A DNA stretch of 64,000 bases from Candidatus Latescibacterota bacterium. Its GTDB lineage: Bacteria; Latescibacterota; UBA2968. The stretch spans positions 5,056,001 through 5,120,000 of the forward strand of contig OZ242010.1 in the NCBI GenBank assembly GCA_965204745.1, given 5' to 3'. How positions within the stretch are numbered: the first letter of the stretch is position 1; the number at the start of each line of letters is the position of its first letter. The translations under genes were made by a program, and so were the position numbers. Shown here piece by piece: positions 9,330-62,986 of the stretch. The notes under the pieces were generated by a model, which was not told the origin of the DNA, ran no database searches, and worked only from the letters and a program-made list of their open reading frames with translations.

Positions 9330-9462
9330 TAACTGACTACTGACCACTGACTACTGCCTTTTGCCTCTTGTATCTTCGACCAAGCACGGGGCATCGCCCC
9401 TACGATCTCACGTCTTACGTCTCACGTCTTGCCTCTTGCCTCTTGCCTCTTCCCTCTCACGC
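9330..9462. repeat. Heptamer arrays (CTGACCA/CTGACTA; CTCACGT/CTTGCCT) with a REP-like end
   Basis: Direct reading. Confidence 0.7.
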
Positions 9463-11679: not shown

Positions 11680-11790
11680 GAGGCAAAAGGCAGTTGTCAG
11701 TTGTCAGTGGTCAGTGGTCAGTGGTCAGTGGTCAGTGGTCAGTGGTCAGTAGTCAGTGGTCAGTGGTCAGTAGTCAGTGGTCAGTCCCCG
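11680..11790. repeat. Heptamer tandem array (CAGTGGT/CAGTTGT/CAGTAGT), ~13 units
   Basis: Direct reading; leader GAGGCAAAAGG and trailer TCCCCG shared with other arrays. Confidence 0.9.
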
Positions 11791-19726: not shown

Positions 19727-20788
19727 CTATTCGTCGATTCGTTTTTCGCCTTTTTGTGCCCGTGCGTTGCCATATCCCAAAAGCGTCTGCGCGGGTTCGC
19801 AGGCGGCGGCGAGTTGTGTTTGTTCGGCGGCGCTGAGGCGCGTCCAATTCGGCGATTTCGGCTGTATCAAGCCAATGGCTGCCTGTAGCCATTGGCTGTT
19901 TTCGTATTCCGGTCCGATAAAACGGATGAACCGGCGCAATTCGCGCTCGGGCGAGTCCAGCGCGGTTTCGTAGCGCATCGACAGCACGCGCTCGGGCGGT
20001 AGCGCGTTTAGGTACGCAACCCCATGCCCGATTAAGCGGCTCCAAAACCGCCCAAATGCGGGCAATGCGATCTCGGTGCGCCGATATCGCTCCGCGGTGA
20101 AAAATTGGAATCGAAACCACTCGAGGAAGGGGATATACGGGCTGGTGCCGAGCAGGTTGAATGGCCGGTAGGGATCGATCCCAACTTTCATCATCAACTC
20201 CTCAGATTGCACGCGCAAGCGGAAGTAAGGATGCTGGGACATGGAAATCGCGGTATCCCTGCCATCCCGATAGAGGTGTACGAACCGCGCATCGGGAAAC
20301 ATCTCTGCCAATGTCGGGACGAACAGCAACGAGAGACCCGAGCGTTCGATCCACCCCTTTTTTGCAAACCGGGCCGCGAGCCATTCGAAGATGAAGCGAT
20401 AATGCGCGCCCAACGATGCTCTGCCGCGCGCCCGCAATGCCGCCGAGAGATCGTCCCACAAACGCTCGTGGTCGTCTGTGAGATGCGGTAGCGTGGTACA
20501 CATAATCGACGGCACGTCGCCCAAAGCGTAGCGCGCATCCGGTCCAATCGGATACAAAAACTCATCCACGATCAAATCGTTTGTCAACAGGGCCTTGCCC
20601 CCAGGCGACAGCGAGTTCAGCCGCCGGAACACGGTCTCGCCGGTCGGTCTGCGCCCCCGAAACACTCGGCTGGTCAACGCCGTGAAAAATTCCGAGATGC
20701 TCAACAGATCCGGGTGCAACTTCACCATGTTCGACAGCATCGTCGATCCACACCGTCCAGTGCTTACGATGAATACGGGATCGGTCAT
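19727..20788 (-). CDS. Sulfotransferase family protein
   Basis: 5'-PSB loop FIVSTGRCGST, FPDARFVHLYRDGRD (3'-PB), MRYE. Confidence 0.88.
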   Translation of the reverse strand: MTDPVFIVSTGRCGSTMLSNMVKLHPDLLSISEFFTALTSRVFRGRRPTGETVFRRLNSLSPGGKALLTNDLIVDEFLYPIGPDARYALGDVPSIMCTTLPHLTDDHERLWDDLSAALRARGRASLGAHYRFIFEWLAARFAKKGWIERSGLSLLFVPTLAEMFPDARFVHLYRDGRDTAISMSQHPYFRLRVQSEELMMKVGIDPYRPFNLLGTSPYIPFLEWFRFQFFTAERYRRTEIALPAFGRFWSRLIGHGVAYLNALPPERVLSMRYETALDSPERELRRFIRFIGPEYENSQWLQAAIGLIQPKSPNWTRLSAAEQTQLAAACEPAQTLLGYGNARAQKGEKRIDE

Positions 20789-20863
20789 TTTTTTCCAAAC
20801 GCGGTCTATGACGAAGCGACATCGTCAGGCAAGAGGTAAGAGGTAAGATACTCTCTTAAAAGG

Positions 20864-21871
20864 TCAAGGGGTTTTCGGGGTGATTCGATAGAATTTTTCG
20901 CCCTCAAAATCTTGGTCATGGCGCAACATGCCCCAGATCGAATGGAGCAACTTTCGCATCACCGCAACGATAGCCTGCAAAGGTTTCTTGCCGCGGGCGA
21001 TGAGTTGGTCATAGAAGGCTTTGACATGGCCTTCGTGTCTGATGGCCACCCAGGCAGGCATATAGAGGGCATGGCGGAGGTACTTATTCCCGGTTTTCGA
21101 GATGCGTCTTTGTGGATTGGCGGTTCCGGATTGTTTGGGTTTGGGATCCAGGCCTGCATGTGCGACCCACTGGGGCGGTTGCATCTCCTCTGGCAAAAGG
21201 GTCAACTCGGCCAAGAGCCGCAAGGCACTCGTTTGCGCGATGCCAGGCGTCGAGCAGAGGCGTTGGTAGGCACGCTTGAGGGGCTCATCGTGCAAAACGA
21301 GATCGAGGGCTTGGCTTTCCAAGTATGCAATCCGGCGTTTGAAGTGTCGAATATTCACCTGAATATCGCGTGCGATGAGACGTGTGCTGCGGATGTGGTA
21401 GCTCTGCGCGTGGTTGCGGCTCTGTTCGCGGATGATCTCCTGCTTGAGTTGGTCAATGCGTCTGGTGAGGGCTTGCAGTTGAAGCCGTTGCTCGCTCGGC
21501 GCTTGCCAAGGCACAAAAGGCATGCGCTCGGCATAGTCGAGGATCAACAACGCATCCTTCGCATCCGTCTTCGCCCGTTGCATGCAGGCTTGGGCGTACT
21601 TGCTCATCGCTTTGGGATTGACGACCATGACCTTTGTGTGGCGATGCCGATGCAAGGCCAAGGCCACCCCCAAACTGTAAAGCCCGGTCGCTTCGAGGCA
21701 CACAGAGACCATGTGCCCGCCCTTCGTGAGCCACTTCAGCAACCGCTTATGCGCTTGGGGATCATTGGCAAAGGTCGCTTGCATGACAGCTTGTCCGGGT
21801 CTGGACAGGGCAACGGACAACGTGCGGGCACTGACATCAATGCCGGCAAAAGCGGGGTGAGATTTCGACAT
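20864..21871 (-). CDS. IS110-family recombinase/transposase
   Basis: DEDD motifs GIDVS, CLEATG, KTDAKDA; catalytic Ser in QSGT; ISK.GN..LR..LY; AVMRKLL; AGGAGG RBS before ATG 21871. Confidence 0.95.
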   Translation of the reverse strand: MSKSHPAFAGIDVSARTLSVALSRPGQAVMQATFANDPQAHKRLLKWLTKGGHMVSVCLEATGLYSLGVALALHRHRHTKVMVVNPKAMSKYAQACMQRAKTDAKDALLILDYAERMPFVPWQAPSEQRLQLQALTRRIDQLKQEIIREQSRNHAQSYHIRSTRLIARDIQVNIRHFKRRIAYLESQALDLVLHDEPLKRAYQRLCSTPGIAQTSALRLLAELTLLPEEMQPPQWVAHAGLDPKPKQSGTANPQRRISKTGNKYLRHALYMPAWVAIRHEGHVKAFYDQLIARGKKPLQAIVAVMRKLLHSIWGMLRHDQDFEGEKFYRITPKTP

Positions 21872-21944
21872 GGGGGCCTCCTGTGATGAGGGGGTTGTAA
21901 GGGATCTGGTGCGCGCTCGGGGTCGCGTCCCGACCATTGACGCC

Positions 21945-22085
21945 AAGTCTACCGGTCTTGTATATGCAGCCTCAAGGGGCTTAGATACTCTTCGGCATAG
22001 ACCCGGCGGTCGGGGGGCCTATCTTACCTACAAGGTCATCGCCTTCAAGAGGGGCCGGCCTTCCCCGAGCCGGGCATCAAGATGG
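21945..22085 (-). ncRNA. Predicted IS110 bridge RNA (target- and donor-binding loops)
   Basis: Two stem-internal-loop structures; donor guides AGAGTATCT (21983-21991) and ATACAAG (21957-21963), target guides GGCCCCTCT (22048-22056) and AGGTAAG (22023-22029); exact transcript ends unknown. Confidence 0.8.
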
Positions 22086-22265
22086 CTTATCTCGATACGA
22101 GGGCGCAACTCCTAATTAACCCTTACTTCCAAGATACAAGAGGTAAGAGGTAAGAGGCAAGAGGCAAGAGGCAAGAGGCAAGAGGCAAGAGGTAAGACAT
22201 CGTCAGACTACCTGTCCACATTGCACGCACCAAGTTACGCAAAAAATCGGATATTCCAAGGGCTA

Positions 22266-22711
22266 GGTCGTGTTGACATTTCATTTTTTGTTGTTACGCA
22301 CAGAGTAGCAACTGTGTTGCTTCTTGCTCATTTAAGGCGTTTGGTCCTTTGATGGCTTAGGTTGCTCTGATGGCGTTTTGCGAGGGGACCTATCCCCCGG
22401 CCCCGTTATTCGCTTCGCTCATTGTAGGCTACGCCTGTGCCTACGAGGAAAGGGGAGTAAAGCTCCTTTGATGGCTTAGGTTGATCTGATGGCGTTGACC
22501 GAGGGCATAAAGCGATTAAATATCCCTCATCAATCCCCTCGCAAAACCGCTCACAGTTCCCCCTTCCTCGCAGGAAGGGGGTTAGGGGGTAGGTCCCGAT
22601 AAGGCGCGACCGTTTCAGTTTCTCAAACCGAGAGCATATTCTGCGATAGGGCTTGATTTTCTCGATAAACCGCTCAAGCCAGTTGCTTTGCTCGTAAATG
22701 TCAACACAACC
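22266..22711 (+). mobile_element. MITE family A, complete copy (446 bp)
   Basis: 16-bp TIR GGT(C/T)GTGTTGACATTT ... AAATGTCAACACAACC, TA on both flanks, no transposase. Confidence 0.82.
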
Positions 22712-32577: not shown

Positions 32578-33029
32578 AGATACTCTCTTAAAGGTCAAGG
32601 GATTTGCGCGGTGATTCGATAGAATTTTTCGCCCTCAAAATCTTGGTCATGCCGCAACATGCCCCAGATCGAATGGCGTAGGGGGCTATAATTATAGCCC
32701 CCTACTTTCGCATCACCGCAACGATAGCCTGCAAAGGTTTCTTGCCGCGGGCGATGAGTTGGTCATAGAAGGCTTTGACATGGGCTTCGTGCCTGCTGGC
32801 CACCCAGGCAGGTATAGAGAGGGCATGGCGGAGATACTTATTCCCGGTTTTCGAGTGGTTGCGGCTCTGTTCGCAGATGATCGCCTGCTTGAGTTGGTCA
32901 ATCCGTCTGGTCAGGGCTTGCTGTTGGCGCAGGGGTGAATAATTATTCGCCCCTACTCGCTCGGCGCTTGCCAAGGCATAAACGGCATGCGCTCGGCATC
33001 ATCGAGGATCAACAACGCATCCTTCGCAT
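32578..33029 (-). mobile_element. Degenerate IS110 copy (right end plus deleted transposase fragments, two REP-like insertions)
   Basis: Right end TTGACC..AGAGTAT-CT essentially identical to the intact copy; coding fragments homologous to 20864-21560 with a ~310-bp internal deletion. Confidence 0.85.
32678..32705. repeat. REP-like perfect 28-bp palindrome GTAGGGGGCTATAATTATAGCCCCCTAC (relative at 32929-32956)
   Basis: GTAG...CTAC ends; absent from the intact IS110 copy. Confidence 0.8.
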
Positions 33030-35105: not shown

Positions 35106-35325
35106 GGTGAGAGGCAAGACGGGAGAAGACCTACACTCACGGCTCGCCTTTGAACGGGCTATCGCCATGTACCCCGCTCGTGGCTCACTTCAGGTTGGGT
35201 GGTCGGTGGGGACTCAAAAGCCTTGACACTCTCCTCTCGATTCACCACGCTCACTTCAGGTTGGGTGTCGGGTGGGGACTGACAACTGACAACTGACAAC
35301 TGACAACTGACAACTGCCCCTTGCC
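35106..35325. repeat. Family D copy, a ~32-bp duplication (35183 and 35249) and a (TGACAAC)5 heptamer array
   Basis: Direct reading. Confidence 0.75.
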
Positions 35326-62938: not shown

Positions 62939-62949
62939 AAGGTGAGATT

Positions 62950-62986
62950 CAGTTGTCAGTTGTCAGTGGTCAGTGGTCAGTCCCCG
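62950..62986. repeat. Heptamer array (CAGTTGT/CAGTGGT)x4 with TCCCCG trailer
   Basis: Direct reading. Confidence 0.75.

Follow-up and report, generated by a model that had tools for sequence, protein, structure and literature searches.

An IS110-group insertion sequence of a Latescibacterota bacterium with a predicted bridge RNA programmed for unit junctions in tandem heptamer arrays

The closest described system to the element reported here is IS621 of Escherichia coli (Durrant et al. 2024, Hiraizumi et al. 2024), which combines a DEDD RuvC-like domain and a Tnp domain carrying a catalytic serine with a long left end and a short right end. In the parts of Durrant et al. on which we draw (PMC11208160), the IS110 group is recognised by a long, RNA-bearing left non-coding end beside a far shorter right end, the IS621 promoter is split between the two ends, and the left guide of the bridge RNA is a top-strand sense sequence pairing with the bottom strand, while the right guide pairs with the top strand. 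The corresponding parts of Hiraizumi et al. (PMC11208158) describe an RNA that opens with a 5' stem-loop followed by a target module and a donor module, catalytic residues D11, E60, D102, D105 and S241-G242, a handshake pairing of a guide with donor positions 6-7, and a synaptic complex whose target and donor modules come from two different RNA molecules. Other family members also use repeated targets: ISPpu9 and ISPpu10 of Pseudomonas putida and other IS110 elements targeting repetitive extragenic palindromic (REP) sequences are multi-copy with all copies in one repeated intergenic sequence, and the IS1111 group (e.g. IS4321/IS5075 and attC-targeting members; PMC11208160) carries its RNA in a long right end and has subterminal inverted repeats of 7-17 base pairs (bp). 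Here we describe an IS110-group element in a 64,000-nucleotide (nt) stretch of the genome of a Candidatus Latescibacterota bacterium (GCA_965204745.1, contig OZ242010.1, positions 5,056,001 to 5,120,000 of the forward strand), hereafter the window, in whose coordinates features are given unless stated otherwise.

20846..22140, minus strand: whole IS110-group element, 1295 bp with a CT core included at each end, or about 1293 bp if CT is counted once
20864..21871, minus strand: recombinase gene, 335 amino acids (aa), ATG at 21871, GGAGG ribosome-binding site at 21877-21881

The element resembles IS621 in its protein domains and end lengths, in the order of its predicted RNA (5' stem-loop, target module, donor module, each module built as stem, guide, hairpin, guide), in its CT core with left guides in top-strand sense and right guides antisense, in a promoter divided between the two ends, and in having a repeated genomic sequence as target. 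It differs in that the protein is only distantly related (phmmer E 5.8e-36), in that a junction in tandem heptamer arrays replaces the REP palindrome, and in that the left target half pairs as 5+2 and the right half as 2+5, whereas the available descriptions of IS621 give a 9-nt left guide and a 4-nt right guide. Tandem repeats likewise set its target apart from the palindromic REP or conserved intergenic sequences described for ISPpu9 and ISPpu10, and its layout is not that of the IS1111 group, with a right end of about 17 nt and the guides in the left end. All features that define an IS110-group bridge element and lend themselves to in silico testing are present. Full-length copies number 52 in the genome, of which 30 are 100% identical (blastn), and the 335-codon frame is intact in 51 of the 52. 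We consider the element very probably an active IS110-group insertion sequence that would work like IS621.

The reading of the element as RNA-programmed draws on its target guides and on where its copies sit.

22048..22056, minus strand: left-target guide GGCCCCUCU (DNA GGCCCCTCT), with CCCCT-CT to the left of 41/45 copies carrying the guide
22023..22029, minus strand: right-target guide AGGUAAG (DNA AGGTAAG), antisense of CT-TACCT, with flank TACCT in 24/45 copies and TGCCT in 17/45

The guide pair GGCCCCUCU and AGGUAAG lies in the left end of 45 of the 52 full copies. Under the IS621 strand rule CCCCUCU matches CCCCT-CT and AGGUAAG matches CT-TACCT, the effective left pairing being CCCCU plus the CU core; against AGGUAAG, TGCCT gives an rU-dG wobble and TACTT an rG-dT wobble. 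The five bases left of the core in these 45 copies are CCCCT in 41 and TACCT in four, and those to the right are TACCT (24), TGCCT (17), CCCGT (2), TGCCC (1) and TACTT (1). A script removed the full copies, and every N5-CT-N5 site of the resulting insertion-sequence-free genome was scored against the main guides, which gave the following occupancy.

Perfect sites (CCCCT-CT-TACCT): 25 sites, 20 occupied
No mismatch and one wobble: 88 sites, 18 occupied
One mismatch and one wobble: 317 sites, 1 occupied
Two mismatches: 758 sites, 4 occupied
Three mismatches: 1178 sites, 2 occupied

The other listed mismatch classes contain no occupied site. Of the wobble site CCCCT-CT-TGCCT, 17 of 82 occurrences are occupied. 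Base composition predicts 0.76 occurrences of the 12-mer CCCCTCTTACCT in the insertion-sequence-free genome, where 25 are present and 20 of these hold a copy; 24 of the 25 perfect sites lie inside arrays of at least three units. The programmed 12-bp site is the junction of a CTCCCCT unit with a following CTTACCT unit in heterogeneous heptamer arrays, and CTTGCCT is accepted for CTTACCT through a predicted rU-dG wobble. At most one in-register unit is present on the left side in 29/52 copies, so that insertion is often at an array's first junction. An earlier reading of the window from its letters and open reading frames (the sequence-only reading) had proposed a bridge RNA programmed against heptamer repeats, which agrees with these counts, and had taken a homogeneous (CTTACCT/CTTGCCT)n array as the programmed target, which has to be replaced by the junction of CTCCCCT with CTTACCT or CTTGCCT. 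Its expectation that other copies would sit at guide-matching sites is borne out on both sides of the core (CCCCT-CT left of 41/45, TACCT or TGCCT right of 41/45). It further suggested that the arrays would be harmless landing sites and that the element might drive rearrangements between them.

The same distribution could in principle arise without RNA guidance, if the protein itself recognised CT-rich heptamers or if random insertions survived only in arrays, the complementarity then being coincidence. The arrays are abundant, with 528 of at least three CTYNSST units by a strict pattern and 2869 units in total, so that an enzyme seeking a CT core would often land there, and a GC-rich left end could contain CCCCTCT by chance. 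However, junctions of the same composition are discriminated: CCCCT-CT-TACCT is occupied at 20/25 sites and TACCT-CT-TACCT 12-mers at 4/87. Guides and flanks moreover change together in variants and relatives whose proteins are 54-84% identical, and we regard insertion without RNA guidance as very improbable.

This joint change of guides and flanks, which the sequence-only reading had named as a check, is seen both within the genome and in relatives from nine other genomes. Seven full copies carry guides other than the main set. The four copies with CGCCUCU/AAGUAAG sit at CGCCT-CT-TACTT (two), CACCT-CT-TACTT (one, by wobble) and CGCCT-CT-TACCT (one, with one mismatch); the copy with UGCCUCU/AAGUAAG is at TACCT-CT-TACTT (wobble) and the copy with UCCCUCU/AGGUGAG at TCCCT-CT-CACCT, a perfect match. 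Truncated old copies carry a further guide set, GUUCCCCCU, behind GTTCCCC-CT, a 9/9 match. At least five guide sets coexist in the genome, each matching a different unit-to-unit junction.

Relatives were taken from two chromosomes titled Latescibacterota metagenome-assembled genomes and from eight further genomes of the phylum; within the genus, the lineage is present in 2/19 other genomes sampled. Eighteen copies in G007 carry CUCGCCUCU/..GGGAG and lie in heptamer arrays at C[G/A]CCT-CT-CCCGT or similar, and seven copies in G028 carry GAUCCUCCU or GAUCCCCCU together with AGAAAAG or AGGAAAG and lie outside arrays, with right flanks TTTCT in six and TTCTT in one. When eight guide classes are permuted over eight flank sets, 2/40320 assignments do as well as the true one. 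Seven distant lineages (52-64% protein identity) pair at 13-16/16 positions with their own flanks versus a mean of 9.9 and a maximum of 14 of 16 positions with the flanks of the others. The left-donor-guide cell of G136 was ignored here, the wrong stretch having been extracted, and a partial match in G147 (L074) and a truncated, 48%-identical sequence on a Gemmatimonadota contig (L056) were left out of all counts.

These relatives also bear on the idea that an ancestor picked up bits of the neighbouring array, and that the heptamer-like stretches of the left end would accordingly be passengers rather than guides. AGGTAAG and CCCCTCT are themselves heptamer-unit sequences, as such an origin would have it. 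The two stretches nevertheless face each other across a single internal loop, the first sense and the second antisense or vice versa, the surrounding stems are conserved, and relatives have non-heptamer guides in the same scaffold columns that match non-heptamer flanks (e.g. AAATAGTCT with AAATAGT-CT, 9/9). We give the passenger explanation practically no credence.

As a guide-bearing RNA, the left end is predicted to fold into the modules described for IS621.

22074..22098, minus strand: 5' stem-loop with a 10-bp stem and AAGCC loop, preceding both guide modules (minimum-free-energy fold)
22012..22065, minus strand: target-binding module, comprising basal stem, left-target guide, distal hairpin, right-target guide, handshake AU and basal stem (folds and consensus structure)
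22021..22022, minus strand: AU past the right-target guide, a candidate handshake guide complementary to donor positions 6-7 (AT)
21942..22007, minus strand: donor-binding module, comprising basal stem, left-donor guide, distal hairpin, right-donor guide and basal stem (folds and compensatory changes)
21983..21991, minus strand: left-donor guide AGAGUAUCU (DNA AGAGTATCT), 9/9 identical to the right end plus core
21957..21963, minus strand: right-donor guide AUACAAG (DNA ATACAAG), 7/7 reverse complement of CT-TGTAT

The 267-nt left end folds better than its shuffles (z -2.6). A consensus from 14 sequences of 10 genomes has two modules, in both of which a short hairpin separates the 5' from the 3' guide strand above a basal stem; the columns that vary in this alignment are those of the guides, the stems being conserved. 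Paired cells amount to 93.6% versus 87.0% in shuffles, with 0/500 shuffles reaching the observed value, and 11/28 pairs are changed on both sides versus 2-6 in slid-partner controls, again with 0/500 shuffles reaching 11. Nine of these 11 belong to the donor-module basal stem, where 9/13 pairs show compensatory changes. The 9/9 match of the left-donor guide was recovered in 38/52 copies with a strict regular expression, the other 14 remaining unextracted because a neighbouring base differs; by alignment the guide is the same in all variant classes except v5, where it reads AGCGTATCT. Only ACAAG (CT-TGT) of the right-donor guide is conserved in relatives, and the end of the right-target guide lies 66 nt from the end of the right-donor guide. 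The folds bear out the two stem-loops with internal loops that the sequence-only reading had drawn, and its four guide stretches lie where it placed them with the matches it gave: 9/9 and 7/7 for the donor, 7/7 for AGGTAAG and CCTCT for the left target.

Changes in relatives extend to the donor side. In G085 the donor AGAAAAC-CT and the left-donor guide GGAAAACCC have changed together, donor positions 6-7 are AC and the handshake place reads GU, where the window element has AU. The AU-to-GU change alongside the donor change suggests handshake pairing, as a single event; in G131, with AG against AT, only one of the two bases would pair. A separate observation concerns G105, a 54%-identical relative (L070, L079, L083), in which the left-target guide ends in AU and the right-target guide still reads the CT core. 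Two of its three copies have ...GCGCAT or ...GCTCAT directly on TGTATC, without CT at the left junction, and may have a mixed-core target.

Several observations weigh against an RNA-programmed element or narrow what the evidence can carry. Pairing with the flanks does not extend to the first two bases (GG) of the 9-nt left guide. Four copies, that of the window among them, show two left mismatches; the window copy sits at TACCT-CT-TACCT, and its poor left-guide match, limited to CCTCT, is explained by its being one of the four off-target two-mismatch insertions. Copies 1927368 and 5150716 have the right flank CCCGT, which does not fit their own guides, and copy 602780, the seventh of those with other guides, has three mismatches to its own guides, yet fits those of copy 1297034. 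The 45 main-guide copies represent one burst and are not independent, and the relatives all come from one phylum and are likewise kin. The target-module basal stem is invariant, so that covariation is silent on it. An Rfam scan of 20500-22500 (E up to 10) returned five matches at E 1.2-6.2, far under gathering scores and none of them a bridge RNA; with no match in the left end, membership of the RNA family rests on our own alignment. No RNA runs are listed among the 24 runs, and no bridge RNA was observed. Finally, contigs of runs X1, X2, X5 and X6 over 20300-22700 show neither a circle joint nor an empty site; being short unitigs only, they are neutral on excision.

The ends of the element are fixed to within the shared CT, since flanks differ among the 52 full-length copies and the termini are constant.

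22139..22140, minus strand: CT core of the left junction (target left half / element left end), with the start CT-TGTAT in 51/52 copies
20846..20847, minus strand: CT core of the right junction, with the end AGAGTAT-CT in 52/52 copies
20848..20854, minus strand: left donor AGAGTAT, the final 7 nt ahead of the core, invariant in 52/52 copies

The sole exception at the left junction, copy 5198949, has a 1-nt insertion there. The minus strand reads ...CTTACCT-CT-TGTATCTTGG at the left junction and ...TTGACCTTTTAAGAGAGTAT-CT-TACCTCTTACCT at the right one, which confirms the circle junction (AGAGTAT-CT-TGTAT) and empty site (CTTACCT-CT-TACCT) given by the sequence-only reading. The left non-coding end (267 nt, 21872-22138) begins TGTATCTTGG and is far longer than the right end, which extends about 17 nt beyond the stop codon and reads TTTTAAGAGAGTAT; the CT core and the array TACCT CTTACCT CTTGCCT follow it. 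There are no terminal inverted repeats, the ends being CT-TGTATC... and ...AGAGTAT-CT, and no target duplication beyond the shared core, so that the flanks rebuild a continuous heptamer register with a single CT.

A blastn search of the window's genome (one 5.48-Mb contig) returned 77 matching pieces, among them the 52 full-length copies, 34 on the minus and 18 on the plus strand. Cumulative GC skew gives no clear origin or terminus, and this strand bias is hence left uninterpreted. As a gauge of intergenic position, the longest stop-to-stop frame over insertion sites has a median of 238 aa versus 458 aa at random positions, a measure that is unreliable at 56.5% GC and in CT-rich repeats. At G000:C1:1121591-1124182 two copies, one of the 100% and one of the 96% class, form a tandem pair spaced by TACCT, which has a CT core on either side; a perfect site holds one copy, and the adjoining two-mismatch site holds the second. 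An older copy of this element family has left a degenerate remnant (81-88% identity) in the window at 32578-33029; the right end of the remnant is followed by CT-TCCTC, the site type of an older guide set, CAGGAAG. Twenty run rows from eight studies contain part of the stretch, their uncoded labels being sponge metagenome or marine metagenome. The contigs of X1, X2, X5 and X6 break at 20846-20848, and X6 (sponge metagenome) has a 1.2-kb contig across the unique flank 20300-20848 with 7 differing letters.

The recombinase matches PF01548, the N-terminal DEDD RuvC-like domain, at residues 9-154 (E 1.2e-24, 87.3 bits versus a cut-off of 29), PF02371, the C-terminal Tnp domain, at residues 203-287 (E 4.8e-20, 72.2 bits), and the NCBIfam equivalog NF033542, 'IS110 family RNA-guided transposase' (213.8 bits versus a cut-off of 140). 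Among PDB homologues found with phmmer, ISCro4 (E 7.6e-40, residues 7-326 aligned) scores ahead of IS621; this best-scoring solved homologue (9t56) was compared at the protein level. Alignment places D12, E60, D103 and D106 opposite D11, E60, D102 and D105 of IS621, and S248-G249 opposite S241-G242 with the catalytic serine, which confirms that the DEDD and serine residues are intact, as the sequence-only reading had stated.

Searches for the IS621 donor sequence did not reach it. An E. coli IS110 at 32% identity (tblastn, plasmids) was rejected as IS621 by its protein start, and blastn of the left end against E. coli genomes found no match. The sequence is also absent from the main texts of PMC11208160 and PMC11208158; its supposed likeness to the present donor, put at about one base of difference, comes from the sequence-only reading.

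A promoter is predicted across the joined ends of the element.

20862..20867, minus strand: TTGACC, a -35-like hexamer in the right end overlapping the TGA stop codon (direct reading and circle-joint scan)
22131..22136, minus strand: TATCTT, a -10-like hexamer at the start of the left end, meeting TTGACC only across the circle joint

The predicted promoter TTGACC-17/18-TAT[C/G]TT spans the joined ends in 51/52 copies; across the window joint the spacer is 18 nt, as had been claimed. In the integrated state no qualifying site was found at the left end in any of the 52 copies by the same criteria as those of the promoter tool, nor in the tool's scan of the window locus. The TGA stop codon of the recombinase gene (20864-20867) lies inside TTGACC. 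Expression of the RNA from the array was considered and dropped, the flanking TTGCCT 18 nt upstream of TATCTT matching only 8/12.

Based on these features, we propose that excision and joining of the ends would form a circle in which TTGACC from the right end and TATCTT from the left end make up a promoter, from which a bridge RNA of about 180 nt would be transcribed out of the left end. The donor module would pair with the element's own joint AGAGTAT-CT-TGTAT, and in the target module CCCCUCU would pair with the bottom strand of CCCCT-CT and AGGUAAG with the top strand of CT-TACCT. The DEDD/serine recombinase would then exchange strands at the common CT core, leading to insertion without target duplication.

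The window copy has a heptamer array on each side.

22141..22197, minus strand: left-side array, ending at the core, of CTTACCT, 5 x CTTGCCT and 2 x CTTACCT (period-7 row of Tandem Repeats Finder at 22137-22197, 8.7 copies)
20827..20845, minus strand: right-side array TACCT CTTACCT CTTGCCT (Tandem Repeats Finder row 20827-20848)

Tandem Repeats Finder gives 1195 period-7 rows in the genome, and the commonest units are CTTGCCT (642), CTCACCT (508), CTCCCGT (325), CTTACCT (282), CTTACGT (229) and CTCCCCT (219). Runs of four CTYNCCT units in 21 genomes of the genus number 515 in G000, 209 in G007 and 0-2 in each of the other 19; because the genomes are kin, the pattern is no more than a lead. G000 and G007 are the two genomes whose element copies target arrays, and the remainder include G028, whose copies target TTTCT sites; every unit, moreover, opens with the CT core. 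It might be supposed from this that the arrays were at least partly made or remodelled by the element and did not precede it as a landing pad. However, the arrays are about tenfold more numerous than the copies, most unit types are matched by no guide present, IS110 insertion leaves no duplication, and G000 and G007 may simply have arrays by common descent. We hold such a making or remodelling of the arrays by the element to be improbable.

Several further features of the repeats were recorded. The same unique 11-nt sequence, GACATCGTCAG (plus strand), stands as a direct repeat on both sides of the entire element-bearing array, at 20818-20828 and 22196-22206. At least 9 nt are common to the two 20-nt flanks in 41/528 arrays versus 5 with shuffled partners; some of these flank-sharing arrays are higher-order tandem repeats and others single arrays flanked on both sides by duplications of 11-20 nt. 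Just past the array, 22290-22700 is a dispersed repeat with about 100-360 blastn hits per position (901 pieces) and very high contig depth in four runs, containing two copies of TTTGATGGCTTAGGTTG.TCTGATGGCGTT 118 nt apart. A second, unrelated heptamer family (ACTGACA, CAGTGGT and GTCAGTG types) is about as abundant as the CT-rich one, its three commonest units accounting for 199, 142 and 113 rows of Tandem Repeats Finder, and occurs in the window at 2114-2146, 9332-9356, 11691-11785, 35278-35316 and 62949-62981. Several insertion sites are composite, with (ACTGACA)n, a linker of about 25 nt and then a CT-rich array.

A defective derivative adds to the guide sets of the genome. In the 192-bp internally deleted copy G000:C1:2972659-2972850, left-end positions 1-184 run straight into the final 7-8 nt of the right end. 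Of the element only the RNA gene is left, with a target module whose guides are GGCCCCUCU/ACGGGAG, and the donor-module basal stem lacks its 3' strand. These guides specify CCCCT-CT-CCCGT, a site occupied at 2 of its 10 occurrences, namely by the otherwise unexplained full copies 1927368 and 5150716; copy 602780, for its part, occupies the site given by the guides of copy 1297034. Tentatively, and with the balance of probability against it, we raise the possibility that copies and defective derivatives form one pool whose target modules act in trans and divide the heptamer arrays among them. Such cross-guidance would be mechanistically possible because the synaptic modules of IS621 come from two RNA molecules. 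A bolder extension of the same idea, prompted by the CT core at the start of every unit, is that the recombinase might also recombine array against array, expanding, shrinking and reshuffling the microsatellites.

Our literature search found no report of an IS110 element targeting a microsatellite, although the supplementary natural-target tables of Durrant et al. may include such cases; the 'tandem repeat' of one candidate paper on a tandem-repeat target proved to be tandem cargo copies. The mechanism is already known, and what is particular here is the target class, the point where two unit variants of a tandem heptamer repeat meet, together with the near-saturation of perfect sites, the graded use of wobble sites and the presence of several guide sets in one genome. 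The value of the locus lies in a natural dose-response, with occupancy of 80% at perfect sites, 20% at sites with one rU-dG wobble and <1% at site classes with any true mismatch, in a bridge element with few of its perfect sites left vacant. Its sister lineages have been re-programmed to other junctions of the same microsatellite family, and relatives elsewhere to unrelated sites, some of which resemble REP-type palindromes by eye. These data inform the specificity rules of bridge recombinases and offer a compact 335-aa orthologue with a 12-bp target, as well as a tractable case of a mobile element tied to tandem repeats instead of REP elements.

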